Source of the DNA: a virus
Lineage: Duplodnaviria > Caudoviricetes
Strand: one strand, 5' to 3'
Virus record (IMG/VR): IMGVR_UViG_3300030104_004717
Coordinates: 1 to 53,252 of that record
DNA length: 53,252 nt
Shown here: piece by piece, positions 8,305 through 39,468 of the stretch
Numbering within the stretch: position 1 is the stretch's first letter
Layout of the letters: each line of letters opens with the position of its first letter
Position numbers and translations under genes: made by a program
Notes under the pieces: generated by a model
Database searches by the model: none
What the model saw: the letters and a program-made list of their open reading frames with translations, nothing else
What the model was told of the DNA's origin: nothing

Positions 8305-8322
8305 TAACTCAAAAAAACTAAC

Positions 8323-10400: not shown

Positions 10401-10432
10401 AATACCAACTTAAATAACTCAAAAAAACTAAC

Positions 10433-10771: not shown

Positions 10772-10795
10772 TTTAAATAACTCAAAAAAACTAAC

Positions 10796-21621: not shown

Positions 21622-24600
21622 ATGGCTAGACCTAAAAAAAACCCATTTGGAGAGAAAAAAAACAATGGAATTGGGTATGATGGGACTAGAACAAATAACC
21701 CATACGCAACGCCTACAAGCAGTCGCAAAAGACGACAGCAATGGGATATGGCTAATCAAGCCAATTTGGTATGGGAAGAGAAGCAAGCCGCCAAAAGAAG
21801 AGCCGCCGCCAACCGAGCCAGAATAGAGCAGGATCGAATAGCCGCTGACAACGAGAAAAATAACAAGAAGGCTCGTGAGGCATTTATAAGGAAGAACAAT
21901 ATAAAGCCTGCCAGTATTGATCACTGGTATGAAGAAGGAGGAGTACAAAGGCCATATTTTAATCAGTCCAAAGATTGGGAATCACAGGGGTTTGAAGCTA
22001 ATGAGTTTGGTGTAGCCTCAGAAGTATTTCGTAACCGTAAAGGTAAATATGAAAGAAGGGATCCTTTAAAAACAGGCAACTACAAAATAGATCCTAAAAC
22101 AGGTGAAACTTATATCACACTTCCTGACGGCACAAAGTACCCAATAGGAACAAATAAAGAAAAGTATTTTGAAGCAGTACAAGATAAGGCGGTAGAGCAA
22201 GCTAACGCATTTGAATTAAACAAAGAACAAGAGGCTGAAAATAAAGGATACGATCTTGATAAGAAAAGAGCTGAGGTCAGCGCTCAACAAAGGCTAATTG
22301 ACCATCGAAAGAAAACTACAAAGGGATATGAAGCAGGCGAGAAAGGTGTCAGAAAACTAACATCTCAAAATAAACAGTATGACGAGGACTACGCAAATCT
22401 CCAAACCTTAGAAGAAGAGCAAGCCAGATTACAGAACGAGAAGACTCAAACTGACTATGAGGCCATCAAGCAAGCTCGATTCACCAATTACTTAAAGACT
22501 AGACCTTACACAGGCAGTCTCGATGAGTCTTTGAGGAGCCTTGAGGAGTACGAGGAGAAAGGCAGTCTATATAAAAACATAGGGCCAGCTGGATCCTTTT
22601 ACATGGCTCCTCTTGATCAAGGCACTGAGAATGAAGAAAAGCGCCCACCTGAAGCAAACCCTGTAAACACATCAGAAGGTAAACTTCAAGTCACTCCACC
22701 AAAAGATGACCAAAGCGACAGCACGGTTGAAGTACAAGCTATTGGTGAAAGTCTTCATTCAGGAACAACAGTTCAAGACAACAAGGTAAAGATTAAAGCT
22801 CATCACGCTGAGAATAATCCAAAGGACGAAGAGGCACAAATTAAAGCCACCGAAGCCAAAGACAAACAAGCGAATCGTAACTCACCAACTAGCGAAAAAG
22901 CTCAAGCTCAAATCCCTGTCATATTAAACGCTCCTGACGTTAGCTTATCAAAGCTATATCAATCCATCGATGAGCTAACAAACACTGATGAAGGCCAGCC
23001 TAAGCTCGCTATTGGTACTGCTGGCTATGATGGATCAAACATCAGTGTCGCCAAGAGACAATTACAAGAAGAAGCTAGAGAATATTCTCTAAAATATATC
23101 TACCAGCAAATGCTTGCTGATCTAGATAACGATATCACTAAATCAAAAATACACACCTACCTACTGATGGGTAATGAGGCAGGTTCAATATTTGGTCTTA
23201 CAGGTGATAAATTAAGACCTCAGACACAAGGAGCTTACGAAGATTATAGAACTGGCATGGCCTTTGAGTCTCTAAAGGATAACCCAACAAAAATTAAAAA
23301 CTGGGAAAAGAAACTTATCGCCAAAAGACTTAAGGAATACGAGGATAACCCTCCATGGAGAATTGAAGCTGGCGCTACTCCATTTAATGTAGAGCCAACA
23401 GCAGAGTGGTTTGATCAAAACATTAACGTCCTAGCATTGCTGAATGCTAAAAAAAGAATGGAGGATCACTATCAACAAGATCGTGATCACAAAGGCACAG
23501 AATGGCAACACGTTGAGGTAGACGAAAGGACAGGACTTGGATTCTCAATGAGGCTTCAGGAAGGCAATAAAGGTAAACCAATATTTGAATACAAAATAGA
23601 CGGTGACTTAGGAGACAGTTCTATCACGAAGGTTAATGAGTATAAATCATGGGATAAGCTCACCATGAAAGAACACATGGACTTTGTGTCCGAAAACCTC
23701 GCTGTCATGAGGCAAGACGTAGGCTGGTTCCAAGATACATTTAATAGGCTTGTAAAAAAATATGGGCAAGGGGTGATGAACTTAGCCTACTTACCTCATC
23801 GAACTTTTGGAACTTACTATTGGGCAAGAGGTACTGAAGAGCTTAAAAAAAGAGTTAATGATCAATACGATAAAGTATTTCCTACCAGTGTGGCTTCTGA
23901 CTTCAAAGCCAGAACTTCTACTGCCGCTCAAACGTGGAATGGTTTAGTAGACGGATTTGCCCAACTTTTTCAGTTTTCACAAGCTTATAAGGCTGGAGGA
24001 TTTTGGGGTGCATATAGCACCAACTTCGCAACGCAATCAGAGGCAATGGTAAGTGAAGCCTTTGAGGCTGGCATGAGTCCAAAGGGAACTTTGGCTTTAT
24101 ATGTAAACGCTTCCCTAATTGCAGGGGTTGATTCCTTAGCTGACAGGTTCCTTATAAAGTCTGGATCAGTTTTTAAAAATGCGTTACCAAAATCTGCGTA
24201 TCAAAAGTTAGTTGCGACAACAGGTGGCAGATATTTAACGGCTACAGGTGGACTGTTAGCAAAAGGTGGAACTGAAGGTGGAACAGAAGTTGTTCAGACC
24301 TTTTGGGAAAATGTTTATGCGCAACACTCTTTTGATCCTGACAGAAAGTACAGCGAAGGAGGGCTAGTCTCTTTCTATGTCGGCGCACTATTAGGTACAA
24401 CTATGGGTACTCGCTCCTTTGCTACTGACATCAGTCAAGGCAAGCAGAGAGCAAAAGATGTACAAGTCGTAGCAGAAGAGCTTAAGAAAATAGAAGATGC
24501 CGAAAAGGGTGGAGATACAGCTAAAGAAGAACTTTCCAAAAATGCAGATGAAGAGGTTAATTTGGGTGACATCATTGACGCTAGAAATTCCGTTACTGCC

Positions 24601-27600
24601 GCTCACGCCAATAAAGCCGCAAGCTTACTTAACATAGGTGTAGCAAAACAAACCGTTGCTAGAATCTTAGCTAATCAAAACATATCTCCTGAAACACAGG
24701 AAGCTATTCTACTTTCAGTCAGTGAAGGCGGTACAGGACTTTTCAATGCTATTGCTGTCGGTAATAAATACTCTCAGGACATTCCCCTTCTAAGTGAAGA
24801 AAACATCAATGCAATATTTGCCGCACTAGAGGTTAACGGTGAAGCAACGCTCTCAGAGAAGGATGCCGCCGTAGCCGCACTAGAGGGATACATATTTATA
24901 GCTAGAGAAGCTGAAAACATTCTAGAAAACGGTAAAGCCACACTAGATGAATACGCACAACCTCTTATCGAAATAGGACTTGCAACTCAAGACCCTGATG
25001 GTGGCATGAAGGTTAATGCTTCAGCCGCCAAAATACTTCCACACAACTTAGCTGAAAGAGTTCGTAATGAAGCTGACGTACAAGCCAGAGGAAAGATCGA
25101 CACTAATGTTGAATCAGCAATGGAGGGAGATACGGCTACCGACAGTGCCATTGATGAAAACATTGAAGATGGACGCAAGACTATTTCTGCTGTTGCTGAT
25201 GATGTACTTAATGAGCCTACAAAAACAAAGTATGAAATAAGAATTGTACCTAAGAGCGATCCTGAAAACTACATAGCGCTTACTCCAATGGAGTTAAGCA
25301 GTGTTGAGAAGGGAATGGAGATAGGTAGAACAAATGCCAAAACCCTAGGCATAGTGGGTGAATACGAGATTGAAGTTACTCAACTCAGCCCTCCGCAAAC
25401 ACAAGACGTACCAGAGCTTAAGCCAGCTAAAAGAGTAGACGGACAAGAGAAGCCTGAGACTACTGAACAAACTAGTGACTTAACTGACGAGCAAAGAACT
25501 ACTCTTGATGAAGAGCAGGCTAGAGAAGCTGACTCTATAGCAGACTCACAGGCACAGCGAGAGGCTCAAGAACAGGAAGCCAATATTGGTGTACCTAAAA
25601 GCCGAGGAGAATTTGGACAAGATAAAGTTGGCACTGGAGAATTTGGACAAGAACTCCCATCGACTCAGAACAGAGCTGACGGAGTTGATATAAAAGACGA
25701 TCAAGAAACAATACAAACACCACAAGGAAATGTACAGGAAGACATCAATGACCCAACTACCTTCACAGGCGAAGCCGAAAGCGTACGCCAGCGAGAAAAA
25801 AACAAAGAAGAAGAAGAAAAAGAACCCATACAAGAGCAGACTTCGCCCAACGAAGAAAGGGTACTGACTCCACAAGTAGAGACTCCAGTTGGAAAGCCAA
25901 GAAAGACTTCTGACTTAGTTGATAACTTTGAGCAGGATCCCGTTATAGCCGCTATCATTGATGAGGGTGGCTTAATCTCTAAGTCACGAGCGCAAAAGGA
26001 GAACAAAGAGAAGTACGAGCAAAATAAAGACCTTTGGGATGATGTTCCATACCTAGGCAACCCAGCCCTTAATGGTATTTACTCCAAGACTGGTGGAATG
26101 ATGCCAGATCAAATGCTGAGGGCGCTTATCGGTAGAGGACTCTTTGGTGAATATGATTCTCTTAGTAAGATGTATGATGCCATTGAAAGAGCATCTAATT
26201 CAGCTAAGAGCATTACAGCCAATCAAAAAACTCAGGAGGAAGACTGGAGCAAGGAAGAAAGACTGGCTAATCTACCTACTCAGCTAAAAACATCCCCCAA
26301 TGGTCAAAACATACTGGTTGATAGTTTAAACAAAAGCCAGCCTTGGGCGCAAAAGTTTATACCTGTTGATATAGACAGTGTTGATGATCGTATCAATTTA
26401 CCTTTCATATTTGCTTTAGAGCAACGCACAGGCAGACGCATTATCCTAGTGGAGCCAGCTAACAAGGATGACGCTGGTGTAAAAATGTCAGGAACTTTTG
26501 ATAATGGTACTATCTTTATAAATCTTGATGGAGATAAAGCGCCTCTTGCTACAGCCATGCACGAGTTCATGCACTCGGTTAGACGAGAAAGTCCTGAACT
26601 ATATAACCAATTTAAAAGAGCCGTCATCAACTCCGCAAGATCCTTTCCTGAGCTTGTTACCACGGTTACTGGACAATATCTTGAAGCTTATAATGGCAAC
26701 TGGAGCTTAGTAGAGGAAGAGGCTATTGCTAATATTGCTGGTGACTTAGCCATGGATCGAAAGTTCTGGAATAAGTTCCTAGCCAAAGAACCAAAGATTA
26801 GTGAAAAAATTGTTGGTTCATTTGTAAGTTTCCTTGATGGCTTAAGAAACAAATTTAGAAGAACTCCTCGTAAAGGTAGAACATGGGAGGCTGTTGACGC
26901 TCTCAGTGGACTTGATGAAGTTAGAGCTTCGCTGGCTGATGTAATTACTCAGTCACAAAACTACAATCGAATTGTCGGCAGTGGCAAGACCTTCCCTGTC
27001 TTAGGCGACCTTAAGATGTTTGCTTTAGATCCTGACCAAGGGTCATTTGACTTTGATAGCGCCCCTGCTCGCAAGGCAATTAAGAGAACTCAACAACAGC
27101 TCTTTAACTTTGAGTCCAAGAGGCAACCAAGGAAGACGCTTCCAAAGTCTGAACCTGAACTACCAAAGCCTACAGGTGAAATTAAAGACTTCGGTCAAAA
27201 GATAGGTGGAGCCAAAAAAGATATTTACGCCGCCTATTTAGAGAAGATGGAAAGTTTTGTTGGTGATGATGCCAGCATAACCATGGCAAAGGACTTCCCG
27301 ATGCCAAACTACAAGCAACTTGCTAAGGAAGGTGTGAGCATTGAAACGCTTGCCTCCATAGCCGCTATAAGAGATTCGATTGATGCAAAACCAAAAGGCA
27401 AATTTAAACTCAGAAACTGGGCTGAAACTTTTAGAACCTTGCGAGGGATAGCCACCCAGCTACTTACAGAGCCTGATTCAGAAGTTGCAAATGCGTGGAA
27501 AGAAATACTTTCTCGTGAGGCAGGAGTTTTAAAGGACATTAAATCTTATTCCTTTGTAAAACGAGAGTCCACACAAGAGGATTATGATTTAAGAAAAAAG

Positions 27601-30600
27601 GCAGGTATAGTTCCTTCTAATGGGGTCAATTCTCAGCTAGGAAAGATAGCGAGCAAAACAATGCTGTATCGAGCATTAGGGCTTCCCGATTTTACTAAGG
27701 CTAAAAAGTGGGGAATCGGCTACTTCAGAAATGTTAATTATGACAAACAGGGCGAGCCACTAGACAAACCTGCTAATGCTTACGTTGCCAAGTACAACAA
27801 AAGAGCAAAAATAACAGCCCCTAAATCGTTTAAGACTGATCCTCAAGAAGCTATCATGGAAATAGCTGATCAGATTAAAAGGGTAATGAAGACAGATCCT
27901 GATCCTGACAAAGAGGACAGGAGACGTAAGCCATACGGAGTTTATCAAAGCCGACTGGATCAAAGTATCTACATTGCTAAAAAGGTAGGAAGACGAGTAG
28001 TAAGACTGAAGGATGGTTTTAAAAGTGTTACTGAGGCACACGCTTACTTGCGAGGTAACTTCGATGAAATAGAACAACTCTTTAATGAAAAGAAAGAGGT
28101 AAAGCTAAGAAGAGAAGACAACAGACCAAGGGAAGGAGAAAGATTAAGAAAGCCTCAAGAAAACATTGATCCTGATCAGTTCATGTCACGCTTTGGATTC
28201 AGAGGTGTGGAGTTTGGTAACTACGTTGAAAACAAGCGCCGTCAACAGAACCTCAACGAAACTTACGATGCCCTTAATGATTTAGGTGCAGTTCTTAATA
28301 TACCGACCGAAGCACTGTCTTTAGATGGAACCCTTGCCTTAGCCTTTGGAGCTAGAGGATCAGGTGGTAAAGGAGCCGCCTCCGCTCACTATGAGCCTAT
28401 TAAGATTGCAATAAACCTGACCAAAAAGAAGGGAGCAGGTTCCCTAGCCCACGAGTGGTTCCATGGACTTGATAACTATTATTCAAAACTAAATGAGAAA
28501 GACAAAACAGATGTAGGCGCTAGTGGTTACATTACACAAAAGATAAGCGTAAAGGAGGGTGGTACAAGGATGTACCCTGCCTCGCAGTATGTTGATGAAA
28601 ACGTGATTATGGGTTTTGTCGATTTAATGAGCCAAATCGAAAAAAGCGACTTTAAGAAAAGAGCAGAGAAATTTGATGAAGCAAGAACAGAAGACTATTA
28701 CTCCACCAATATCGAATTAGCGGCAAGAGCCTTCGAGGGTTACGTGGTTAATAAGTTAAGTGAGTCTGGAATAACTAATGACTTCTTAGCTAACATTGAC
28801 CCTAGGGGTGGAGCCTATCCTACCAGCCAAGAGCAAACGGAAACTTTTACTCCATTATTTGATCATCTCTTCTCGCAAATGTCGTATGCGAAAACTGATA
28901 GAGGAACTAAGCTCTTTGCCTTAGATCCTGAAACTAAGAGAGGGATTATTAACAGAATATCGCCAAGGGGAACTCCATCTGAAGACAGTAGATTTGTTGA
29001 AGTTAATGTTAAAGATTTTGATAAGTTATTTAAAAACGATACAGCAGACACATACATCGGTAAAGGTGGAGAAGGTGGCATAGCTAATAGGTATGAAGCC
29101 TTTAAAGAATATCTTGGAACTAACTTACCAATAGCAGCCAGTGAAGCCTTCTTAAAGATAGGGCGTGACGGAAAGTTAGCATCGGCAGGCTTTGAAAACG
29201 GCAGACACCGATACGCTGTATTAAGAGACTTAGGACTACGAAGCATCAAGATGCACATTAGTGGTGATGCTAAAGCTCTCAAAAAAGCAGAGGATGAAGG
29301 ATTGATAAGCGAGGAACTAATCACGCAGGAACCTGCAAGAACCTATAGCCCTAAAGAAATAGAAGATGCAATTAAGAAGTCGCCAACTAAACGCTTTGCC
29401 ATCGATCCAGAAACAGAAGCCGAGTATTTAAGGTTGGCTGAGGAGCCTGATAACAACTATTGGAGCCTAACTAAACTCCTTGATAGAGCCGCTAAGATTG
29501 CAGGTTATAAATTCAAGGGGTGGCACGGTACTCCTGATGGAAGATTCCTAGATAGCGACCCTGTATTCAGACCCAAAGAGTGGGCAGACACAGGAGTCCA
29601 TTGGTTTGCTGAGGACTACAATACAGCAACCACTTACGCTGATGATACTAGAGCATTTGACTATCAGAACGCAGAGCCAAGAACTGATTACTATTATATT
29701 AAAATTGATAACCCTTACATGGTAGATGGAAAGGGAGCTAAATGGCGTAGCGCTCAAGGGGCAGGCAGAACCAAGAATGTTATCGAGAAGGCTATTGATG
29801 CTGGCAACGATGGAGTCATTATTGAGAACGTCAGAGACAACTATCAAACTGGCGTAGTTAGAGGTGACAAACCAACAACGACCTACTCCGTATTTGAGTC
29901 TGATCAGATTAAGTCAGCCAATCCAGTAACCTATGACAATGAAGGCAACATCATTCCACTATCTGAAAGGTTTAATCCAGACAAAGCAGACACTAGGTTT
30001 GCTTTAGATGAAGACCCTGAACCTTTTTATTCGGGAGTCGTAAGTGCAATAAGGAATAAATTTCCAAAGAAGGCATCTATCGATCAAGCATTAGCGTTCT
30101 TTAAGCCTGGTAAAACGGCAGGAGTTAAAAAGGCTGAGGTTGATTGGATGGGCTTAGAACAGTGGATATTAGATCATAACAACCAATATCAAAAAGGGGT
30201 AATAAAACAAGCCGACCTGTTTGACTTTGCATCGTTAAACCAAATGAATATTGGGGTTGCGGAGTTAAACGAAAACTCCGTCATGTATAGTGACTGGAAA
30301 CAAAAAGGTGGAGAAAATTATAAAGAATTTGTTTTCTATTTAGATGATAAAGCTAGTGATGAACGTGGCACAAAAGATCTATATAAACCTCAACATTTTG
30401 GGGGTATAAAGAAAAATATTCTTTTTCACATGAGAACCAGCGACAGAATCGCTGAGAATGGTGATAAGTATTTATTTATAGAAGAAATTCAGAGTGATTA
30501 CGCAACTGATTACCGACAAGATTCAGCTTATAGGCAAGCGCAAAAAGATTTTATTATTGAATTAGATAACCTCGTTCGTACTGCTAACAATGTTGGAAAA

Positions 30601-33600
30601 GAGGCAATTAGGTCAATGGGTAGAAAGGCATACAGGGAACATTTCAAGCGACATGAAGTAGCCGTAAAAGCCTTGGTGGATGCAATAAGTGAATGGGATA
30701 AAACTTCAGGCATTAGAGAAGCAAGAGCAGATGAATATTACTCTGAAAGAGAGGGTCGAGTGGAGAGGCGGGGTGATATGGATTCCAACACACTTGACGC
30801 AATAAGGTGGTTAAGGATAGGTTCTCATGGACTGCAAAAAGAAAAAAGTGAAATTGAAGCCCTTCAATCTTTATCACCCGAAGAGATTGAAAAACTTGAA
30901 TTACTTCCTGATGCTGAAAAGTTCATCGAAGCCATTAATAGCGACTATGACTATGTCTACCGAATAAGGCGGACAAGTAGCGAAGTAAATGTTAAATACC
31001 CAAACCTTCAAGGCGGTGTAACCGAGGAGGCGCATCACGTAAATCGGTTACTTAAAGGACTGCTCACTACAAAAAAACTGTATAGTCGTCTTGAAAGCTC
31101 CTTAAAATTTAGTGCGTCTCAGGATGAAAAGATGGGCGGCATTACTCCACCAACACTCGAAGAAATTTACGAAACAATAGACCCTGAGATTATTCCTAGT
31201 TATAAGGAATTTTTAACATCCTTACAGCTTTTTCCTGACTTTTCAGGAGGTGTAGCTTCGTTAACTGGGGGCGCAATAAATGCCTTTGATCGACAAGAAA
31301 ACTCAATCTATCAAAAGGCGGAGAGTATGGAGGAAATGGCAACGGCTGGATCAGCTACAAACATACCTTACTTCCCGATTGTTAATACATGGTATGAAGC
31401 CGCTTTGAAACACGCTATTAGGTTAGCCGTTAAAAATGATTTTGATGGACTGGCGTGGGCTACAGGGAATATGCAGATTAAGTTGTATAAAGACAGACTA
31501 AGGCAAAACGTCAAAGTTATAAAGTACACAAAACAAGAAGATGATACAGTATATCTAAAAGCTGTTTCTGTAGAAGGCGATGGCGTGGACGTGGGAAGCG
31601 TTCCTTTAAAAGGTAAGCAACTTGACGCAGATAGCCGTTTATTTGGTAAGTCATTAGAAAATATTGTAGGAAAAAAAGTAGCTGAAGCTATACGCTCCTC
31701 CAAAGAAGATGAAGGAACCCATACTGGTAAAGATCTAAGTATTGGAGGGCAGTTGCACCGTATGCTTTATGATGTTGCAGCTCCATCTTTCTTGACTGGC
31801 AAAAAAGGTTACCTCAAAAAATTCAACGCCAAACTTGATAGTAAGTCATTGCTTTTTGATAGAGCTTATCAAATTCCAGAAGCTGAACGTATAAGACTCT
31901 ATAATGAGACAGCTACCAGTAGAGTTAAGGCTTCAGCCTTAGCCACAAGAGATGGCGAATTTGACGAACACAAAGAATACAATCGCCTTAGAAAGAAGTT
32001 ATTAGATTACAAGACGGATTTATTATGGGCTGAATCTGATGGTGACCTTTCGAATTTACAATTTGATGATATTTTTGCACTCACTCAAGAAATTGCAGAT
32101 TACTGGAAAAAGGTTTGGAGTCGTTTTAGAAATACCGAAGCTAGTAGCAGTCAAGATTCCCAAAACTTTTACCCACTGCACGGGAAATTTAGAATCCTTG
32201 CAGACGACATGGGTCTTTATGATCACGTTTCAGATATACCTTCATTTGTAGAATATAGAATGGGAAGCCAACCTCATGATCTGGTAGAGACTGCAACAGA
32301 TTTTGATTTTGATGAGAAGATTAAAGATAAGCAAAATTTAGCCTCTCTTATTTACGCCTATATAGATTACGATCAAAGAAAGGCGCTTCAGGAAGAATTT
32401 TATAAGCTTATAATAGCCGCTAACGAAAATCCAACGTACGCCAATAGAGTACCTTATGAGGAAACAGGTGAGGAGAGAGAGTATACTCCTAATCCCTATA
32501 GAGAGAATTATTCCTTGGGGATGGATAAGACATATAAAGGTAATGCGGCTCCTCGCTTGCCTTACTCAGGGATGGAAAAAGCCAATAAAAGCGAAAAAGC
32601 GCTTGGTGAATTTGTTACTGATGCAATCAATAGAGACAAATCAGGCTTATCAAAGTTTGTTCAACATTTAGACTTAATGTTTGAAACAGGAGGTTCATTT
32701 GATTACGCCCTACCGTATCAAAAACTATCAACTTACTTTGATCAAATAAACGATTTATTAGGAACTTTGGAAGGTAGTGAAACAAAGTACGCCGAAGGAT
32801 TTAATCCAACTCATGCTATCAAGTTTACCCCAGAGATGAAGGGTTCAACATTGGAGTACCTCCCTCCCCTCTTCGCTTTAGACCCAGTAGAAGGCAAGAA
32901 ACTTGCCGCCATTAAAGATAAGGGTGAATTTGCCAAAGCACTAGATAGAGCGCCTTCTGAGGCAATCCTGAGCGCTTATGACCACATCCCTGCTACAGAA
33001 GAGAATGACGAAAGGCTCAACACCTTAGCTGACAAAGTCGAACAGATATTACAGCCTGTTGATGATCCAAATCCTGTATCTAGCAACTTTAAAACAAAGG
33101 TGGCTTCTCAGGTTGGCAAGTTCATTAGAGAAGGTCAGCCTAAACAAATAGTAGAGGATTTAATTAACGAAAGACAACGCCTTGAAAATTACGAAGGTCA
33201 CCCAGACCTATTAGCTAAGGTTGAGGATAGGCAATACGAGGAAGCGGTTATGCGCCGCCCTAAGCCTGTAGAGAAGACAAAGAGACAACAGAACTTCATA
33301 AACCTCTACAACAAGTATAAGGACAATCCTAAATCTTCTTACTTTAAAGCCGCATCAAAAGCGCTTGAGAAAGACTTTGGCAAAGACTGGAAGAATATTG
33401 CTGAAGGGGTAGCTTCAGATTCAACAAGATATGCTCTTGATCCAGAGAATCAAAATCAAGACTACAACGCCAAGAAGGCTCAACAAGATAGAGCAACAGC
33501 AGAGCTACTTGATACAAGAAGAAAAGTTAAAGAGGCCAAGAAAGAAGATAAGAAACAAAAAAGAAAAGAAAAGATAGAAGCGGCTAAAAGGCAGAGAAAA

Positions 33601-36600
33601 AGATTCTTCTCAGGTAAGTATGATTACCTAGACTTCATGTCTGGCACTTACGGAGGTTCAGGTAAAGCTGGCTCTACATTAAGAGATGCTGAATACAATG
33701 TCGCCAAAGTAAAATCTGCCGTTAAAGAATACAGTGACTTACTCTCAAGAGAATTAAAAATTAGAGTAGGAATCCCTTTCTGGAAGTTTTTATCAAGAGG
33801 TAAAAGATTAAGACAGTTCGCCGCAGAACTTCACACTACAGCCGCAAGACTGAATGTGGAATCCTTCAATCCTAACCCTGATTCAACAGGCAGTAATTTT
33901 ACATTTAGAGGATTTGACGCTCGCATGGGATTCATGCCTGAGTCCGAAGCGAAAGCAAGAGGTTTAGTCAAAGGAAGTATCTATACAGAAAATCACGAAG
34001 GTGATACCCAAACGTTAAAGCTTGGCAACTACGTTCCTGAAATGGAAGGCTATCTTTTAGTGCAACGCTTTACGGCTGAAGAACAGCAAAGGATATACAC
34101 AGACTTTTTAAACAAGTATCCTGATCTTGGCATAATTCTAGAAAGGTTCATTAACCCGCTTTTAGGTAACGCAAGATTTACAGCATCAAGCGGCATGAAG
34201 ACTCCAATCTTCAACCGTGAATCTTTGAAGCAGGCATTCGGAGACACGGAACTTGGCGACCCTGGGTTTGTCGAGGGCTACACGCCTGATGTTGCTATAG
34301 CTACTATCCTTGGAGGAGCGGCATTAAAAGCTAAAGAGAAATTTGAAAAAGATACATTCAAAAGAAAACTTGGAGCCTTTAATCTTAAAACCAGTGGAGC
34401 TAGAAGCATTAAGACAGGTGCGGCAAGAGAGAAAGGTCAAACGCTAGACATATTTGAGGGCTTCGATGTAAGGGCGCTGGAATCCCATCTTGAAAGAGCA
34501 AGCAGGCAAAATGCTTACAAGCTTCTTGAGACATCTACAAAACCTTTACCCGAAGAGGGATTACCAGATGGGCATATTGAGATAAGCAAAGAAACGCTTA
34601 ATGGCATTCTTAAAGGTATGCTTTTAGTAATGGGTGACAAGTCAGCCAGAGGAACGGCTCTTAATAAGTTTTGGAAAGATGCAGTCGCCAACCCTGATTT
34701 AACCTCTTACACCGATAAAGTATTATTCGATGAGAAAGATGCTAACTATGATGAAAGAGAAAAGAAGATTTTAGAGTTCTTATTTGGAGACAAAAACGCC
34801 AGTCGGTTCATAGGTACGGATCGTATGATGGACAAGGCGACTTACGAAACTCTTATTGATAATCTTTCGGCAAGGCACACTAATTTTGATGGATTAGGTA
34901 GAGCGGTACAAACCTTATTAGGGCAAGTTATTACAAGCTACCTAACTGCTCCCGCAACCATCTTATTCAACTGGCTTGCTCCAAACTTGCAGGCGGCATC
35001 AGCAGGCGCGTTTAGAATAAATAAAGCGGCTATCTATCTTGCTACAGGAGTAAAGAATCCTGAAGACAGAAGAAGAGCTGAGTATGAACTTCGTGCAGGA
35101 CTGCAAACCTTAAAAGGATTGGCTACCAGAAGGTTTAGTAATTATGCAGGGATTAACGCATTCCTGTCAGGCGATGACTACATAAGAGGAAAACTCTCTG
35201 ATGAAGACTATGACAAAGGAGCAGGCAAACTTTTATTGGAAGGGCAAGTCGGCAAATCAATTAAAGCGTTAACAGATCGCCGTACAAAGTATGGGGAGAT
35301 TGTGCCTCGTGAGTTATTTGATAATAACACTCTTGTTTCAGGTATCGAGCGCATTGAGCCAAAGGATTCTATTCTTAAGGATTTACTTAATCTTAAAGGC
35401 GGTTCAGCTATTTTGAAGTTAGCTCAGTTCCACGAGATGGATCCAACAGTTAAGCAAAACTTAGTCTATGCCTCTTACAAGGCACACGCTCAGATGGCAT
35501 ATAACGATGCTGTGAGAGAAGCTAAGGCTAAGGGTCAAAAGATTGATACCCCTAAAAAGAAATGGATAAGAGATTGGATGAAAACCGTCAAAGATACGGA
35601 TGCAATCCATGAAGAAGCCAGAGGAACGGCTATGCTATTTGCTTTTGATTACAGCAACATACCGATGTGGCTTGATAGTAAGCACCCTGTTATGCAGGCG
35701 GCCAAGCCAGCACTTATTCCATTTAGTAACTTCATCTACAATTACGGCAAGCTTTTAACAAAACTTACGCCTATCGGATTAATACCTGAAGCTATAGCCA
35801 GCAAAGGCAAGAAAGATAAACTTGGTGGCGCTGAATGGAAAAACGCCGCTTCAGGATTTAGTATGTTTGCTATAGCTACACTTCTTTGGGATATGCTCGG
35901 TGACGATGAAGAGGATGAATCAGAACTCAAAGCAGGCAAGATAGGAAGCAACATGGACATTAATAACAAGTTTATTAAGAAGTTCTGGATGATGACTGGA
36001 GGTAAAATAAACCTCGATGAAATGCCTGATGTATTTGGTTCAAAAATCACTAACGCCGTAAGAGCTTACTTTGAAGCTTACGGAGCTGAAAAAGCTTCAG
36101 GACATGAACTGTGGCTTAGAGGCAGAGCTTTACCTTACCTTAATATCCTAGCAACACAGGATCTATGGATTCGTGCCTTGAAGGATAAGTATATCAAAGG
36201 AGAGGATGTGGACTTCAGGGATGTTCTATCGGAAACAAAAGACATGGCTATGGAGTTTGTTCCTCGTGGCCCTGTAGCCGCACTGTTTACAGAGAACAAG
36301 TATGATGAGAATAAAACCCAAGCCGAAGAGTGGGGCGCTTTCACTTTTGATATTGCAACCTCTCGCTCAATGGTTCCTGCTTCTTACTGGAGATTTGTTC
36401 AGAGGTTAGTCGATCCAATCTATAGAAGAAAGTATCCAAGTGATACTTTTGAGTTTAATGAAACATCCACTGACCAGTTTATCAATGAATGGAAGAGAAG
36501 TATCCCCTTCTTATCTAAAACAATGTTGCCTGCTGGAAGTATGAAAACACTGAAGCTTAATAGGGAAACTCAGGTGGGTGATAAAGATTCAGAGGAGTAT

Positions 36601-37362
36601 GTGGAAACAACAAGTTTTGATCACGCTATGCTTCAACGTGAGGACGTTAAGGCAGACTTAAGTCAGCTTGCTGATATGGGAATTGACCTAAGTGAGTCCA
36701 CTAGAGTTTTAACCGACAAAGACGGTGAATTAGTTATTAAATACCCAGACCCAACAACCTTAAGAATTGTGACTCCTGCTGAAAGGATAATAACCATGCT
36801 CTTTAGAATAGAGTCCATGCCTTCAACGGAGAGAGCTTTAGCGAGGACAGGTTTAGAAGACTTTAAAGCAATGGATAGACTTATTGCCAAGGCAGTTAAC
36901 AATCCATACTCATTAGAAAAGCCAGACAAGAAAGCCTTGCAGGCATGGGCTGAATATACTCACAGTCCAGAATACCACGACTCTATACGCAATATTATCA
37001 ATGCTGAAGGTTCGCTGGCTGAAAGGTTGCAAAGAGAAGAGAGTATTGATGGACTCCCTATCAATTATGACGAAGACGGTAAAGAGATTCCTTTACCAAA
37101 AGACTTCCTGCGTAAGGTTGTTGAGAACATGAGCCGTGACCAGTACGGCAACTTGGTTAATGCCAGCGACAATAGACCAATGAACTTAAGTCTACACAAG
37201 ATGTGGTCGGTCGTTCCTATTGACGAGGAAAATGTTTCTGAGTTCTTAAACCCAATGAACTACACTTTAGAAAATAAGAAGAAGTCTACCTCCTACAAGA
37301 GAATGCTTCCTTACACTGAGGAAGGTTTAGAACTACCAGATAAGGTATTTAAAACTAAATAA
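21622..37362 (+). CDS. Giant polyvalent protein (5246 aa), probable injected internal virion protein: zincin metallopeptidase, LPD5-like, LPD1-like, ParB-like, ADP-ribosyltransferase-like and unknown domains
   Basis: HEFMH...EEEAIA (aa 1647); DFGQKIGGAKKD (LPD5-like); FRGVEFGNY...HEWFHGLD...ELAARAFE (LPD1-like); ENGRHRYAVLRDLG (ParB-like); WHGT...WFAED...IDNPY...DGVIIENV...VFESDQIKS (ART-like); LFIEEIQSD domain. Confidence 0.85.
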   Translation: MARPKKNPFGEKKNNGIGYDGTRTNNPYATPTSSRKRRQQWDMANQANLVWEEKQAAKRRAAANRARIEQDRIAADNEKNNKKAREAFIRKNNIKPASIDHWYEEGGVQRPYFNQSKDWESQGFEANEFGVASEVFRNRKGKYERRDPLKTGNYKIDPKTGETYITLPDGTKYPIGTNKEKYFEAVQDKAVEQANAFELNKEQEAENKGYDLDKKRAEVSAQQRLIDHRKKTTKGYEAGEKGVRKLTSQNKQYDEDYANLQTLEEEQARLQNEKTQTDYEAIKQARFTNYLKTRPYTGSLDESLRSLEEYEEKGSLYKNIGPAGSFYMAPLDQGTENEEKRPPEANPVNTSEGKLQVTPPKDDQSDSTVEVQAIGESLHSGTTVQDNKVKIKAHHAENNPKDEEAQIKATEAKDKQANRNSPTSEKAQAQIPVILNAPDVSLSKLYQSIDELTNTDEGQPKLAIGTAGYDGSNISVAKRQLQEEAREYSLKYIYQQMLADLDNDITKSKIHTYLLMGNEAGSIFGLTGDKLRPQTQGAYEDYRTGMAFESLKDNPTKIKNWEKKLIAKRLKEYEDNPPWRIEAGATPFNVEPTAEWFDQNINVLALLNAKKRMEDHYQQDRDHKGTEWQHVEVDERTGLGFSMRLQEGNKGKPIFEYKIDGDLGDSSITKVNEYKSWDKLTMKEHMDFVSENLAVMRQDVGWFQDTFNRLVKKYGQGVMNLAYLPHRTFGTYYWARGTEELKKRVNDQYDKVFPTSVASDFKARTSTAAQTWNGLVDGFAQLFQFSQAYKAGGFWGAYSTNFATQSEAMVSEAFEAGMSPKGTLALYVNASLIAGVDSLADRFLIKSGSVFKNALPKSAYQKLVATTGGRYLTATGGLLAKGGTEGGTEVVQTFWENVYAQHSFDPDRKYSEGGLVSFYVGALLGTTMGTRSFATDISQGKQRAKDVQVVAEELKKIEDAEKGGDTAKEELSKNADEEVNLGDIIDARNSVTAAHANKAASLLNIGVAKQTVARILANQNISPETQEAILLSVSEGGTGLFNAIAVGNKYSQDIPLLSEENINAIFAALEVNGEATLSEKDAAVAALEGYIFIAREAENILENGKATLDEYAQPLIEIGLATQDPDGGMKVNASAAKILPHNLAERVRNEADVQARGKIDTNVESAMEGDTATDSAIDENIEDGRKTISAVADDVLNEPTKTKYEIRIVPKSDPENYIALTPMELSSVEKGMEIGRTNAKTLGIVGEYEIEVTQLSPPQTQDVPELKPAKRVDGQEKPETTEQTSDLTDEQRTTLDEEQAREADSIADSQAQREAQEQEANIGVPKSRGEFGQDKVGTGEFGQELPSTQNRADGVDIKDDQETIQTPQGNVQEDINDPTTFTGEAESVRQREKNKEEEEKEPIQEQTSPNEERVLTPQVETPVGKPRKTSDLVDNFEQDPVIAAIIDEGGLISKSRAQKENKEKYEQNKDLWDDVPYLGNPALNGIYSKTGGMMPDQMLRALIGRGLFGEYDSLSKMYDAIERASNSAKSITANQKTQEEDWSKEERLANLPTQLKTSPNGQNILVDSLNKSQPWAQKFIPVDIDSVDDRINLPFIFALEQRTGRRIILVEPANKDDAGVKMSGTFDNGTIFINLDGDKAPLATAMHEFMHSVRRESPELYNQFKRAVINSARSFPELVTTVTGQYLEAYNGNWSLVEEEAIANIAGDLAMDRKFWNKFLAKEPKISEKIVGSFVSFLDGLRNKFRRTPRKGRTWEAVDALSGLDEVRASLADVITQSQNYNRIVGSGKTFPVLGDLKMFALDPDQGSFDFDSAPARKAIKRTQQQLFNFESKRQPRKTLPKSEPELPKPTGEIKDFGQKIGGAKKDIYAAYLEKMESFVGDDASITMAKDFPMPNYKQLAKEGVSIETLASIAAIRDSIDAKPKGKFKLRNWAETFRTLRGIATQLLTEPDSEVANAWKEILSREAGVLKDIKSYSFVKRESTQEDYDLRKKAGIVPSNGVNSQLGKIASKTMLYRALGLPDFTKAKKWGIGYFRNVNYDKQGEPLDKPANAYVAKYNKRAKITAPKSFKTDPQEAIMEIADQIKRVMKTDPDPDKEDRRRKPYGVYQSRLDQSIYIAKKVGRRVVRLKDGFKSVTEAHAYLRGNFDEIEQLFNEKKEVKLRREDNRPREGERLRKPQENIDPDQFMSRFGFRGVEFGNYVENKRRQQNLNETYDALNDLGAVLNIPTEALSLDGTLALAFGARGSGGKGAASAHYEPIKIAINLTKKKGAGSLAHEWFHGLDNYYSKLNEKDKTDVGASGYITQKISVKEGGTRMYPASQYVDENVIMGFVDLMSQIEKSDFKKRAEKFDEARTEDYYSTNIELAARAFEGYVVNKLSESGITNDFLANIDPRGGAYPTSQEQTETFTPLFDHLFSQMSYAKTDRGTKLFALDPETKRGIINRISPRGTPSEDSRFVEVNVKDFDKLFKNDTADTYIGKGGEGGIANRYEAFKEYLGTNLPIAASEAFLKIGRDGKLASAGFENGRHRYAVLRDLGLRSIKMHISGDAKALKKAEDEGLISEELITQEPARTYSPKEIEDAIKKSPTKRFAIDPETEAEYLRLAEEPDNNYWSLTKLLDRAAKIAGYKFKGWHGTPDGRFLDSDPVFRPKEWADTGVHWFAEDYNTATTYADDTRAFDYQNAEPRTDYYYIKIDNPYMVDGKGAKWRSAQGAGRTKNVIEKAIDAGNDGVIIENVRDNYQTGVVRGDKPTTTYSVFESDQIKSANPVTYDNEGNIIPLSERFNPDKADTRFALDEDPEPFYSGVVSAIRNKFPKKASIDQALAFFKPGKTAGVKKAEVDWMGLEQWILDHNNQYQKGVIKQADLFDFASLNQMNIGVAELNENSVMYSDWKQKGGENYKEFVFYLDDKASDERGTKDLYKPQHFGGIKKNILFHMRTSDRIAENGDKYLFIEEIQSDYATDYRQDSAYRQAQKDFIIELDNLVRTANNVGKEAIRSMGRKAYREHFKRHEVAVKALVDAISEWDKTSGIREARADEYYSEREGRVERRGDMDSNTLDAIRWLRIGSHGLQKEKSEIEALQSLSPEEIEKLELLPDAEKFIEAINSDYDYVYRIRRTSSEVNVKYPNLQGGVTEEAHHVNRLLKGLLTTKKLYSRLESSLKFSASQDEKMGGITPPTLEEIYETIDPEIIPSYKEFLTSLQLFPDFSGGVASLTGGAINAFDRQENSIYQKAESMEEMATAGSATNIPYFPIVNTWYEAALKHAIRLAVKNDFDGLAWATGNMQIKLYKDRLRQNVKVIKYTKQEDDTVYLKAVSVEGDGVDVGSVPLKGKQLDADSRLFGKSLENIVGKKVAEAIRSSKEDEGTHTGKDLSIGGQLHRMLYDVAAPSFLTGKKGYLKKFNAKLDSKSLLFDRAYQIPEAERIRLYNETATSRVKASALATRDGEFDEHKEYNRLRKKLLDYKTDLLWAESDGDLSNLQFDDIFALTQEIADYWKKVWSRFRNTEASSSQDSQNFYPLHGKFRILADDMGLYDHVSDIPSFVEYRMGSQPHDLVETATDFDFDEKIKDKQNLASLIYAYIDYDQRKALQEEFYKLIIAANENPTYANRVPYEETGEEREYTPNPYRENYSLGMDKTYKGNAAPRLPYSGMEKANKSEKALGEFVTDAINRDKSGLSKFVQHLDLMFETGGSFDYALPYQKLSTYFDQINDLLGTLEGSETKYAEGFNPTHAIKFTPEMKGSTLEYLPPLFALDPVEGKKLAAIKDKGEFAKALDRAPSEAILSAYDHIPATEENDERLNTLADKVEQILQPVDDPNPVSSNFKTKVASQVGKFIREGQPKQIVEDLINERQRLENYEGHPDLLAKVEDRQYEEAVMRRPKPVEKTKRQQNFINLYNKYKDNPKSSYFKAASKALEKDFGKDWKNIAEGVASDSTRYALDPENQNQDYNAKKAQQDRATAELLDTRRKVKEAKKEDKKQKRKEKIEAAKRQRKRFFSGKYDYLDFMSGTYGGSGKAGSTLRDAEYNVAKVKSAVKEYSDLLSRELKIRVGIPFWKFLSRGKRLRQFAAELHTTAARLNVESFNPNPDSTGSNFTFRGFDARMGFMPESEAKARGLVKGSIYTENHEGDTQTLKLGNYVPEMEGYLLVQRFTAEEQQRIYTDFLNKYPDLGIILERFINPLLGNARFTASSGMKTPIFNRESLKQAFGDTELGDPGFVEGYTPDVAIATILGGAALKAKEKFEKDTFKRKLGAFNLKTSGARSIKTGAAREKGQTLDIFEGFDVRALESHLERASRQNAYKLLETSTKPLPEEGLPDGHIEISKETLNGILKGMLLVMGDKSARGTALNKFWKDAVANPDLTSYTDKVLFDEKDANYDEREKKILEFLFGDKNASRFIGTDRMMDKATYETLIDNLSARHTNFDGLGRAVQTLLGQVITSYLTAPATILFNWLAPNLQAASAGAFRINKAAIYLATGVKNPEDRRRAEYELRAGLQTLKGLATRRFSNYAGINAFLSGDDYIRGKLSDEDYDKGAGKLLLEGQVGKSIKALTDRRTKYGEIVPRELFDNNTLVSGIERIEPKDSILKDLLNLKGGSAILKLAQFHEMDPTVKQNLVYASYKAHAQMAYNDAVREAKAKGQKIDTPKKKWIRDWMKTVKDTDAIHEEARGTAMLFAFDYSNIPMWLDSKHPVMQAAKPALIPFSNFIYNYGKLLTKLTPIGLIPEAIASKGKKDKLGGAEWKNAASGFSMFAIATLLWDMLGDDEEDESELKAGKIGSNMDINNKFIKKFWMMTGGKINLDEMPDVFGSKITNAVRAYFEAYGAEKASGHELWLRGRALPYLNILATQDLWIRALKDKYIKGEDVDFRDVLSETKDMAMEFVPRGPVAALFTENKYDENKTQAEEWGAFTFDIATSRSMVPASYWRFVQRLVDPIYRRKYPSDTFEFNETSTDQFINEWKRSIPFLSKTMLPAGSMKTLKLNRETQVGDKDSEEYVETTSFDHAMLQREDVKADLSQLADMGIDLSESTRVLTDKDGELVIKYPDPTTLRIVTPAERIITMLFRIESMPSTERALARTGLEDFKAMDRLIAKAVNNPYSLEKPDKKALQAWAEYTHSPEYHDSIRNIINAEGSLAERLQREESIDGLPINYDEDGKEIPLPKDFLRKVVENMSRDQYGNLVNASDNRPMNLSLHKMWSVVPIDEENVSEFLNPMNYTLENKKKSTSYKRMLPYTEEGLELPDKVFKTK

Positions 37363-37744
37363 GCTCTTTCTGGGATTCTATAATTCCTTCCATCTGCATC
37401 TTGTAATACTTATCGAAAGGAAAGTGCTTGGAGTGATCAGAGTTTTCCCAGCGCCTATAGAGAACATTGCGCAGTCTCTTTGATAGAGAGCCGCTAGGGT
37501 GCTTATTTTCGCCTTCATCAGAAGACATGGTTGCTTGTGGGTCTGCGTTATCTGGAGCGATTATAACCCGTGCTGTGGCTCCCTGTAGATCGACTAGATC
37601 ATGGTACAACTCCCTGCCACACTCTCGCTCAGTTGCTAACCTGATAGTCGCCGTAAAATCCTTGCGCCTGTTGATGCCATCAACTGTGCAATATATATCG
37701 CAAGCCTTAAGAGGCTCACCTTCTACCATTTGATATTCTTCCAT
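37355..37744 (-). CDS. Hypothetical protein (129 aa)
   Basis: Last gene of the leftward operon; SKRLRNVLYRRWE...FDKYY..QME.II pattern. Confidence 0.7.
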   Translation of the reverse strand: MEEYQMVEGEPLKACDIYCTVDGINRRKDFTATIRLATERECGRELYHDLVDLQGATARVIIAPDNADPQATMSSDEGENKHPSGSLSKRLRNVLYRRWENSDHSKHFPFDKYYKMQMEGIIESQKELI

Positions 37745-37968
37745 CCTTTTATGTCGTGAATTTCACAAAGATCCTTTATGGCATCCTGCTTAGTGTCGCC
37801 GTACCCACACGGATCAATCTCGTGCTTTGCTAGAAACTTTGCTATGTCTCTTGAGCCGTACCAAGCTACCCACTCCTCATCATCAAGGGCTGTGTGTATC
37901 TTATTGTTAGCTATGAACGCCTTGGCTGGCGTTTTCCCGTTGTGTGTCTTGGGGCTGAATTTTCCCAT
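37723..37968 (-). CDS. Hypothetical protein (81 aa)
   Basis: Overlapping operon arrangement; CGYGDTKQDAIKDL motif. Confidence 0.6.
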   Translation of the reverse strand: MGKFSPKTHNGKTPAKAFIANNKIHTALDDEEWVAWYGSRDIAKFLAKHEIDPCGYGDTKQDAIKDLCEIHDIKGWKNIKW

Positions 37969-38102
37969 TGGTTACTCCAATCTATTATTCTCTCAAGTTT
38001 ATATTCGTTACTTTGACCAAAGTGTATCTCGGTGAGAGTACCGAAAAGTTTTGGGTCATGCTTAATTATGTCTTCAGCTATTTGGTGCAGTTGATTTTCC
38101 AT
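37911..38102 (-). CDS. Hypothetical protein (probable start ATG 38102, MENQLHQIAE...)
   Basis: ATG immediately downstream of the tandem RNA structures; the longer GTG start would run through the structured RNA. Confidence 0.45.
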   Translation of the reverse strand: MENQLHQIAEDIIKHDPKLFGTLTEIHFGQSNEYKLERIIDWSNQWENSAPRHTTGKRQPRRS

Positions 38103-38112
38103 TTTATAAAGA

Positions 38113-38301
38113 TTCCGAATAGTGTTAAATGGTGGAAATACAGGGGTAAACGACCCCAAAACCACGTCCGTAATTCTCTTACGACTCTATTCTATTCAGA
38201 AATTGGTTTTAAATTTTAGTAGTCAGCAAAGTGTTCAACTCAGGATGCGTCTAACAAACCTCCTCCGTAGCTCTCCTACGACTGCTATTCTTTGCCGACT
38301 A
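38113..38301 (-). ncRNA. Tandem pair of structured RNA elements (38220-38301 and 38113-38201), family not recognised
   Basis: Each copy has a 10-12 bp closing stem with G-U on the minus strand, conserved GAATAG...AACAC flanks, a TCGTAR-GAGAR-YTACGG hairpin with a compensatory change, and a second variable hairpin. Confidence 0.75.
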
Positions 38302-38314
38302 TTTTCTCTAGTTC

Positions 38315-38653
38315 CTAAAAGGGAATGTCATCCCCCTGAAGATCCTCCGCCGTGGCGGATATAGTTGAGGTCATAGGGCGCTGAGATGCCTGAGAACCTG
38401 AAAAGTTCTGCTGGCTTCCACTGTCACTATTTTTTTGCTGTGACCCTGCAACATCTGCATTGCCCACAAAAGGCATTTTGGTTCCAGAATCCCTTTCCTC
38501 TTTTGTTGACTTCTGTACTATTCCCCAAGTCCCGAAGTCAGAACTAGGTGTTGGAATTAGAACAAGGTCACAATAGGTTCCCTTTTTGCCCTTGAAGAAT
38601 CGATCCTTATCAAGTTTCGAAACATCTACCTTAACATTTATCATCTCTGCCAT
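38315..38653 (-). CDS. ssb: Single-stranded DNA-binding protein (phage type)
   Basis: C-terminal DDIPF tail after a Ser/Gln-rich linker; follows the Rad52-like annealase. Confidence 0.75.
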   Translation of the reverse strand: MAEMINVKVDVSKLDKDRFFKGKKGTYCDLVLIPTPSSDFGTWGIVQKSTKEERDSGTKMPFVGNADVAGSQQKNSDSGSQQNFSGSQASQRPMTSTISATAEDLQGDDIPF

Positions 38654-38678
38654 GTGTCGTCTTTTTATTACTGTTGTT

Positions 38679-38720
38679 AAAAAAAGGGACAGCTAAGAAC
38701 CATGCAGTCTTAACTGTCCC
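38679..38720 (-). terminator. Rho-independent terminator between the annealase gene and ssb
   Basis: Minus strand GGGACAGTTAAGA-loop-TCTTAGCTGTCCC followed by T7. Confidence 0.75.
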
Positions 38721-38731
38721 ACCCCCATTCA

Positions 38732-39385
38732 TCAAGCCGCCTTATTGGCCTCCTGAGAAATTTCTTTAGCCATCTGGCCTACCAAGTGCCAGAGTTTAAA
38801 TTTGTCATCGTTTAAAGAATGACTCATCACTCTGTTCCGCCATTCAATAATCTGATCCCTCTCTGTTGGACCTAGTTCAATTAGAGGCTTGCCTTTTAAG
38901 GTTGAAGCCTTCTTCCATTCGCCTAATTCATATTTAGGGACTGGCCTGTCCTCCTTCGCATATTCCTGATCCAAATAAGGGTCATCAACCCCCTTACCTT
39001 GATAGACAGAAAGACCGACTCCCATAAAGCTAGAGGCTTTAGAAATAAGATTAGTTTGTGCCTTTTTCATCCCCTCAGCCACGTTGCCTTTAAAGACACG
39101 AGCGTCACCAATAGCAGGGATTTGACAGCGTTGACCTTTGTACATATACCAAAGGTGGCCTACAGCTGCGATGTTATCATCTTCATGTCGGAATTCATCG
39201 ACCTGTACACCCCATCCATAACCACACAAGCCAAACTCTTGAATGAGTCGTGGAATAATGTGATAAGCGTCAATGACGGTCATCGTTCTACCTCCGAGCT
39301 TAAGGTTTTTATAAGCGGTTTTAGGGAACGGGCGAGAGAGCCTTATAAATAGTTCATTCTCGTCTTTTTCTTTTTTTGAGTCCAT
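38732..39385 (-). CDS. Rad52/Sak-family single-strand annealing protein
   Basis: LSRPFP, IDAYHIIPRLIQEFGLCGYGWG and KKAQTNLISKASSFMGVGLSVY match the Rad52/22 pattern; adjacent to ssb. Confidence 0.8.
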   Translation of the reverse strand: MDSKKEKDENELFIRLSRPFPKTAYKNLKLGGRTMTVIDAYHIIPRLIQEFGLCGYGWGVQVDEFRHEDDNIAAVGHLWYMYKGQRCQIPAIGDARVFKGNVAEGMKKAQTNLISKASSFMGVGLSVYQGKGVDDPYLDQEYAKEDRPVPKYELGEWKKASTLKGKPLIELGPTERDQIIEWRNRVMSHSLNDDKFKLWHLVGQMAKEISQEANKAA

Positions 39386-39468
39386 ACGTCTGTTTTTTAC
39401 TTTTAAGTTAAAATTTAAGTGTGGGTCTATCTTATACAGGTTGACTCATGTTGCAACAAAAAAAATGA

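Follow-up and report, generated by a model that had tools for sequence, protein, structure and literature searches.

The window analysed here, a complete virus record of 53,252 bases, raises the question of what lies between two genes of its minus strand at positions 38113-38301, where an earlier note had described tandem RNA copies of one architecture, and what such an RNA might do for a phage. Examination of the sequence bears out the description: the two copies (A, 38301-38220; B, 38201-38113) are arranged head to tail on the minus strand and share a plan comprising a closing helix P1, the strand GAAUAG(C)AG, a 6-bp helix P2 capped by a GAGAN loop, a variable helix P3 and a 3' box (C)AUUGAACA. 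The strand that runs back into P1 reads (C/G)A(U/G)UU(G/U)AACA in both, and the P1 sequences of the two are unrelated. Both copies are training sequences of our covariance model R1, so the bit scores given below match by construction.

38315-38653, minus strand: upstream ORF, 112 aa, SSB-like tail DDIPF; its stop codon is 11 nt before P1 of copy A
38220-38301, minus strand: copy A, three-stem-junction RNA, identified from sequence and model R1 (60.5 bits)
38301-38290 UAGUCGGCAAAG with 38231-38220 CUUUGCUGACUA, minus strand: P1 of copy A, 12 bp, one G-U
38289-38282, minus strand: J1/2 of copy A, AAUAGCAG, one extra C
38281-38276 with 38270-38265, minus strand: P2 of copy A, UCGUAG with CUACGG
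38275-38271, minus strand: P2 loop of copy A, GAGAG
38264-38241, minus strand: P3 region of copy A, a weak P3 with 3 bp in the family register
38241-38232, minus strand: 3' box of copy A, GAGUUGAACA
38202-38219, minus strand: spacer between the copies, 18 nt, A/U-rich, CUAAAAUUUAAAACCAAU
38113-38201, minus strand: copy B, same architecture, identified from sequence and model R1 (65.2 bits)
38201-38192 UUCUGAAUAG with 38122-38113 CUAUUCGGAA, minus strand: P1 of copy B, 10 bp, one U-G
38191-38185, minus strand: J1/2 of copy B, AAUAGAG
38184-38179 with 38173-38168, minus strand: P2 of copy B, UCGUAA with UUACGG
38178-38174, minus strand: P2 loop of copy B, GAGAA
38167-38166, minus strand: J2/3 of copy B, AC
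38165-38132, minus strand: P3 of copy B, GUGG..GGGG(U)/(A)CCCC..CCAC, with an inner GGGG/CCCC hairpin
38131-38123, minus strand: 3' box of copy B, CAUUUAACA
37911-38102, minus strand: downstream ORF, 63 aa; ATG at 38102, 10 nt after P1 of copy B

The two copies and their surroundings

The closing stems differ in sequence and yet both pair, over 12 bp in A and 10 bp in B, and the inner hairpin displays the compensatory change from G-C to A-U that had been claimed for it, with UCGUAG/CUACGG in A corresponding to UCGUAA/UUACGG in B. The proposed minus-strand sense likewise holds: the minus-strand folds reach -27.5 (A) and -25.1 (B) kcal/mol versus -17.8 and -19.7 on the plus strand, an advantage of 5-10 kcal/mol, and the G-U and U-G pairs would be mismatches on the plus strand. 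P1, P2 and P3 of copy B are all reproduced by its MFE fold; for copy A the unconstrained MFE fold is without P2, and the family fold, with P1 and P2 enforced, lies 1.2 kcal/mol above it. The P2 word TCGTARGAGARYTACGG occurs in the window at these two sites only, with 0.46 matches expected at up to 3 mismatches. Given that each copy is only modestly better than its shuffles (z-scores of -2.69 for A and -2.12 for B, with 3 and 5 of 200 shuffles folding equally well), the two window copies alone are not convincing, and the evidence that exceeds chance is, as judged from sequence, that supplied by their relatives.

The earlier note had placed the RNA downstream of ssb. What stands of this is the C-terminal DDIPF (DEIPF in the homologue from locus L019), which suggests that the 112-aa ORF is SSB-like; searches of Pfam, PHROGs and PDB sequences returned no match for it. 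The preceding gene (38732-39385) has a match in PHROGs, to an exonuclease family. Copy B does end 10 nt before the next ATG, at 38102, as had been noted, and the stretch between them holds no Shine-Dalgarno-like word; such words precede only 11 of the 49 ORFs of this phage. Locus L019 is syntenic, with an exonuclease-like gene, a 115-aa SSB-like homologue ending in DEIPF, the 63-aa ORF, and an A-type copy only. In L019 and L022 the homologue of the 63-aa ORF begins 6 nt past P1 of the single copy, and the A-type relative keeps the fold despite changes in P1 and P3. The RNA had been called duplicated, and there are indeed two copies of one fold; B is nevertheless not a fresh duplicate of A, since not only P1 but also P3 is unrelated between them, and B is nearer to the family consensus than A, which makes it an extra unit.

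Downstream of P1 the window has CUAAAAUUU after copy A and UCUUUAUAAA after copy B. A consensus terminator scan of the window listed only the inner P3 hairpin of copy B here, at a frequency no higher than in shuffles, and no promoter belonging to the element itself is evident in the window, promoter-like sites being as frequent as in shuffles. The DNA of 37300-39400 has no match among GenBank phages. Contigs from two marine metatranscriptome runs of one study cover parts of the region:

38573-38288: metatranscriptome contig ending 14 nt into copy A
38152-37956: metatranscriptome contig covering the side of the 63-aa ORF
38591-38423: metatranscriptome contig within the SSB-like gene

None of them spans 38153-38287, and as assembled contigs reveal neither RNA ends nor absence, the metatranscriptomes indicate presence in RNA libraries only.

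Elsewhere in the window a single plus-strand ORF of 5246 aa (21622-37362) takes up about 30% of the genome and contains the Pfam polyvalent-protein domains LPD5, LPD1 and ART-PolyVal (ADP-ribosyltransferase), and a second large ORF of 1911 aa (15028-20763) has no Pfam match. Three plus-strand ORFs are preceded by a near-identical 25-nt leader (..AATAACTCAAAAAAACTAAC-ATG; 8298-8322, 10408-10432 and 10771-10795), and four neighbouring plus-strand ORFs (leaders before 8750, 9613, 9905 and 11193) by a common strong leader of the AAGGAGG..CATAAG-ATG type. From their sequences, the ORFs sharing these leaders look like a block of duplicated gene cassettes.

Comparison with known RNA families

The RNA had been described as unassignable to a known family, and Rfam 15 (4227 covariance models) agrees: no match in the whole window reaches its gathering score, and at E<=10 the interval 38000-38400 yields four chance-level hits (E>=3.3; 12-16 bits versus cut-offs of 38-75). 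The best-scoring relative (L059, 250-400) has no hits at E<=10, and across 15 related loci Rfam 15 found two tRNAs and nothing else. The hammerhead ribozyme likewise joins three stems, around a core of CUGANGA, GAAA and one H preceding the cleavage site; there is no hammerhead hit in Rfam, and the junction strands of our element (AAUAGAG, AC and CAUUGAACA) differ from that core. The models RF01739 and RF01704, which we take to be those of the glutamine riboswitch (glnA RNA and Downstream-peptide, respectively), gave no hit even at E<=10, though habitat and tandem layout would fit.

Literature searches with the conserved words UUGAACAC and AAUAGAG recovered unrelated papers only, and the motif is not described in the searchable papers on the topic. 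The closest parallel is the catalogue of 10,006 candidate structured RNAs from IMG/VR by Fremin, Bhatt and Kyrpides (2023; PMC10690425), whose candidates resemble our element in source (IMG/VR), in being intergenic folds with covariation that lie no more than 25 nt from a start codon, and in being absent from Rfam. The abstract, section 2.4 and the passages found in that paper name no such element, the 10,006 candidates being listed in its supplementary tables, and the family may be present among them anonymously. The passages found in two 2026 preprints on non-coding discovery do not mention the element.

Relatives and their distribution

A first search pattern, with only AATAG, TCGT, GAGA and ACGG fixed, recovered 27 viral loci or contigs. 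In 25 of these the 3' box T(T/G)AACA(C/T), which the pattern did not specify, is found at the right place and is flanked by sequence that pairs with the stretch preceding AATAG. In L001 the box differs by one base, and L006 resembles chance. A second pattern, in which P1, P2 and P3 were left free, recovered at least 119 stretches. The same design is thus seen in more than 100 viral contigs, mostly of marine phages, belonging to at least 57 lineage groups that share no protein at >=80% identity, as established by all-against-all BLASTP of 1784 ORF products from 140 loci. The sets of 138, 90, 84, 83, 82 and 81 instances analysed here and below were drawn from among the matches listed. Among the 138 pattern instances, P2 pairs at 6/6 positions in 91 and at 5/6 in 32, such that 123 have at least 5/6, compared with a chance rate that we estimate at ~3% (6 of the 16 base combinations pair).

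One carrier is in GenBank, namely the uncultured Mediterranean phage MedDCM-OCT-S45-C18 (AP013544.1; Autographiviridae). Its element (L239, 2914-2990; about 29129-29205 of the record, complement) is unannotated; its first 24 nt are shared with an annotated hypothetical CDS of 54 aa, and 10 nt separate its end from the RNA polymerase gene.

In cellular genomes the element is rare. Across 185,579 species genomes of bacteria and archaea (one per species) there were 97 pattern hits, about our chance estimate, of which only 8 are strong covariance-model matches. All 8 are on MAG contigs, six from Verrucomicrobiota (three of them clearly phage-like), one from Armatimonadota and one from Acidobacteriota. 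A model scan within Verrucomicrobiota, in which the first-look filter scored few candidates, found the element in 1 of 151 genomes of the phylum and 1 of 41 of the family, in each case the query genome itself. As the matches are confined to the query genome, the MAG contigs may be phage DNA in bins, and these counts together indicate that the element is phage-centred and rare in cells. In two Verrucomicrobiota MAGs (L162, 3660-3732; L208, 1533-1605) its setting does not look phage-like: in L162 it lies between genes for a Mal s 1-like/arylsulfotransferase-like protein and a family 9 glycoside hydrolase (Pfam), and the flanking ORFs of L208 are homologous to those of L162.

Conservation of the fold

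Instances with at least 5/8 pairs in P1 and 5/6 in P2 numbered 83 after removal of duplicates, and alignment A2 contains 81 distinct ones, L007 and L023 being left out for P3 insertions of more than 110 nt. RNAalifold recovers from these 81 a P1 of 9 pairs, a P2 of 6 and a P3 base of 4, with compensatory changes on both sides in all 19 of the 19 pairs. Paired cells amount to 89.4%, a figure inflated by the filter on P1 and P2 pairing, versus 55.6 +/- 0.9% in column shuffles and 35-46% with the partners slid; the covariation score is 0.892 versus 0.232 and was attained by none of 500 shuffles. The covariation among homologues on which the earlier note had made its case depend is accordingly there, as compensatory changes preserve the fold across many unrelated phages.

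That AATAGAG, GAGA and TTGAACAC are invariant in A2 is in part imposed by the search patterns. Conservation that owes nothing to them is seen in the G-C pair closing P1 (79 of 81), in the AC after P2 (78 and 79 of 81), in the constant dimensions of P2 (6 bp and 5 nt) and in the 3' box of the first search. At the P2 base, U-G ranks among the three most frequent pairs (20 of 81). Copies found by the covariance model alone include the variants ACUAGAG and AUUAGAG, a GAAAA loop and one copy nearly without P3. Outside the three helices, no further pairs rose above noise in a mutual-information scan. GGAGA in P2 was considered as a Shine-Dalgarno sequence and rejected, the base before GAGA being G in 48 and A in 33 of the 81 instances and Shine-Dalgarno-like words occurring at 11 of 49 ORFs. 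Taken together, the sequence comparisons indicate that this RNA family is real, strongly supported, widespread in phages and absent from Rfam.

Genomic context

With ORFs called by our own simple scripts, not a gene finder, the element is found at gene junctions and mostly in the sense orientation: in 49 of 90 instances the ORFs on either side share its strand, and in 1 of 90 the two are on the opposite strand. The antisense RNA suggested among other options in the earlier note is therefore unfit for the window locus, where both flanking genes are likewise on the strand of the element. In 30/84 instances no more than 12 nt separate the upstream stop codon from P1. The 3' strand of P1 contains the next start codon in 10/84, this codon follows P1 by 1-12 nt in 22/84 (32/84 in total), and stop and start are both within 12 nt in 15/84. 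At the other extreme, the next ORF is more than 30 nt away in 29/84 and there is none within 150 nt in 11/84, leaving 40/84 without an ORF start within 30 nt.

Directly after P1, a run of at least four T is present in 19 of 82 instances, versus 4.2% of random 12-mers from the same loci (binomial p = 1e-9); the control positions before P1 and 40 nt downstream have such a run in 9/82 and 5/82, and 63/82 have none after P1. The near-start and T-run classes are nearly exclusive, with only 3 of the 32 near-start cases having a T-run, and some T-run cases then carry a clear AAGGAGG and a start codon. P1 itself has at least 9 bp in 49/84 instances (maximum 17 bp outside one outlier) and should in these form without a ligand.

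The downstream genes are without a common theme. They include: 1) a T7-like RNA polymerase, confirmed by tblastn; 2) the N-terminal part of a family A DNA polymerase and a terminase large subunit; 3) a GMP reductase/IMPDH-family enzyme; 4) a 164-aa protein with no Pfam hit, read as RuvC-like from an N-terminal motif; 5) HNH-like and small zinc-ribbon proteins and unknown ORFs, named by reading. In the 5-7 kb flanks, the all-against-all comparison found no protein family linked to the element in more than 7 of the 57 lineage groups, which suggests that its partner is the RNA itself, a small molecule or a host factor.

Direct tandem pairs occur at five loci, namely the window, L012, L038, L067 (3 nt apart) and G004 (overlapping), and near-tandem copies in L042 and L095. 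Within L095 (2290-2680) a direct repeat of about 256 nt holds the whole element twice, the second 3' box being changed to UUGAAGAC. The tandem pair of an Armatimonadota MAG (L184, 2743-2890; the same as G004, contig C14, 10743-10890) fills, in antisense orientation, the space separating Pfam-confirmed terminase and Mu-type portal genes in a prophage-like region; it is the only clear antisense case. In L111 (6996-7146) a tRNA-Arg(TCT) begins 4 nt past the element and an ORF 13 nt past the tRNA, all on one strand together with the upstream ORF; of the 8 tRNAs present in 6 of 144 loci, this one alone is adjacent to the element. The element of L167 (3508-3609) starts a few bases after a sequence resembling a tRNA 3' end (..GGTTCGACTCCCG..), at which neither Rfam nor ARAGORN calls a tRNA; this may be an attachment-site remnant at a prophage border.

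Possible functions

In architecture the element is most reminiscent of the purine and glutamine (glnA RNA) riboswitch aptamers, which are small three-stem junctions, the glutamine class being found in marine cyanobacteria and cyanophages. Like these it is a three-stem junction of 60-90 nt with near-invariant junction strands and freely covarying stems, stands in front of genes, forms tandem copies and occurs in marine phages. Unlike these it lacks even a weak Rfam match, has other junction sequences and a much longer P1, and is followed by genes that share no pathway; its ligand would be a hypothetical one. Of the features expected of a riboswitch, the conserved aptamer-like fold backed by covariation is found, and the leader of a single pathway is not.

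We tentatively favor the element being a cis-acting, riboswitch-like gate on the following cistron, whose conserved core locks P1, and would give this reading a probability of roughly 40%. We rank it first because P1 appears to act in two roles, as occluder of a start codon and as terminator stem, and because these are combined with a conserved junction and with tandem copies. Riboswitch classes use both types of expression platform, start occlusion and terminator, across different hosts. To the observed family, with its fold, its strand, its position at cistron junctions and the link of its P1 to start codons and U-runs, we would add a gate, a ligand or factor and a direction of control, all three of which we infer. 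Both copies would be transcribed within a minus-strand operon running from the SSB-like gene to the 63-aa ORF. The junction strands (GAAUAGAG, AC and CAUUGAACA) and the P2 of fixed length with its GAGA(N) loop would form a tertiary core that locks P1, perhaps with the GAGA(N) loop docked and the two long junction strands paired to each other. P1 would be the working part: in the window it ends 10 nt before the AUG, putatively within the ribosome footprint, in other phages it would sequester an AUG contained in it, and in yet others, where a U-run follows directly, it would form a terminator hairpin. By binding a small ligand or host factor, the core might set how often P1 is locked and so act as an OFF switch, and two copies in series could give a stronger or sharper response.

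Several observations count against such a gate, namely the unrelated downstream genes, the long P1, the antisense tandem pair of G004/L184, the tRNA-abutting copy of L111, and the distant or absent next ORF in 40/84 instances. These same features suit three other readings. The first of these, unlikely in our estimation, is that the element is a processing site, either a small self-cleaving ribozyme of a new kind or a structure that a host endonuclease recognises, at which polycistronic phage transcripts are cut at cistron junctions. Such cuts would determine where the neighbouring messages end, how stable they are and how they are translated, as do those of known cutters of this sort such as the RNase III sites of T7 and the hammerhead and theta ribozymes of phages. 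The distribution fits well, being patchy, phage-centred and sporadic in bacteria (1/151 and 1/41 related genomes) without any gene association and with several copies per genome, as is true of phage self-cleaving ribozymes (hammerhead, twister, pistol, hatchet and HDV-like theta). Known small ribozymes also have a count of conserved bases comparable to the about 25 of this junction, and a long, constitutively stable P1 would be in place. The copy of L111 directly before a tRNA is a further likeness, as passages of PMC10879173 and of its preprint report HDV-like theta ribozymes adjacent to phage tRNAs. However, the core differs from every Rfam ribozyme model, none of which matches even at E<=10, and its junction strands (AAUAGAG, AC and CAUUGAACA) are not those of a hammerhead. 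Moreover, cleavage does not explain the enrichment of U-runs after P1, which is unexpected for a ribozyme, and directly abutting tandem copies are unusual for ribozymes.

The second is that the element is passive punctuation, namely a compact, nuclease-resistant intercistronic stabiliser which, where a U-run is present, serves as an intrinsic terminator; overall we consider this rather improbable. It would shield the message upstream against 3' exonucleases, or the one downstream against decay dependent on the 5' end, and tandem copies would act like tandem terminators or tandem flavivirus xrRNAs. The long P1 and the tandem pairs agree with such a role, as do the upstream stop codons within 12 nt of P1 (30/84) and the junctions with stop and start both close by (15/84). 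The closing helix followed at once by a U-run in 19/82 is likewise shared with intrinsic terminators and with terminator-embedded aptamers, of which the HMP-PP/thiS riboswitch is an example. Unlike an intrinsic terminator, the element has in place of a loop a conserved junction of 55-95 nt; a plain hairpin would suffice for punctuation, which leaves unexplained why about 25 unpaired bases are nearly invariant and why P2 keeps a constant length. Furthermore, 63/82 instances are without a U-run, both window copies lack a proper one, and neither scores as a terminator.

Least probable, and doubtful on its own terms, is a trans-acting small RNA released from the transcript and targeting a protein or RNA of the host (such as the ribosome, RNA polymerase, an RNase or a defence protein) as decoy or modulator, with tandem copies raising the dose: orientation and neighbours that are not strictly fixed (the antisense G004 pair and the L111 copy fused to a tRNA cluster), the lack of a linked phage protein family, and a conserved GAGA-type loop and purine-rich junction strands of the kind likened to protein- or RNA-docking motifs would suit it, but flanking ORFs that are both on the element strand in 49/90 instances and both opposite in 1/90, the lack of an evident promoter of its own in the window, and the links to start codons and U-runs point to action in cis.

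Biological significance

Returning to the cis-acting gate, a more specific and rather doubtful version of it would be a new, almost exclusively phage-borne riboswitch class that senses host state, for example through a nucleotide or second messenger, and gates early and middle genes; a new class of small self-cleaving ribozyme would fit the evidence equally. If so, the gated genes would include the T7-like RNA polymerase gene of marine podoviruses, and the tandem copies would sharpen the response. Irrespective of which reading applies, a small and sharply conserved motif that recurs in at least 57 phage lineage groups, directly before key genes such as that of the T7-like RNA polymerase, probably serves marine phages quite generally in controlling or punctuating polycistronic messages. 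Being short, with about 25 invariant bases, it lends itself readily to bench work. Should it prove to bind a ligand or to cleave itself, the natural aptamers or ribozymes would gain a new class, and RNA engineering a compact part.
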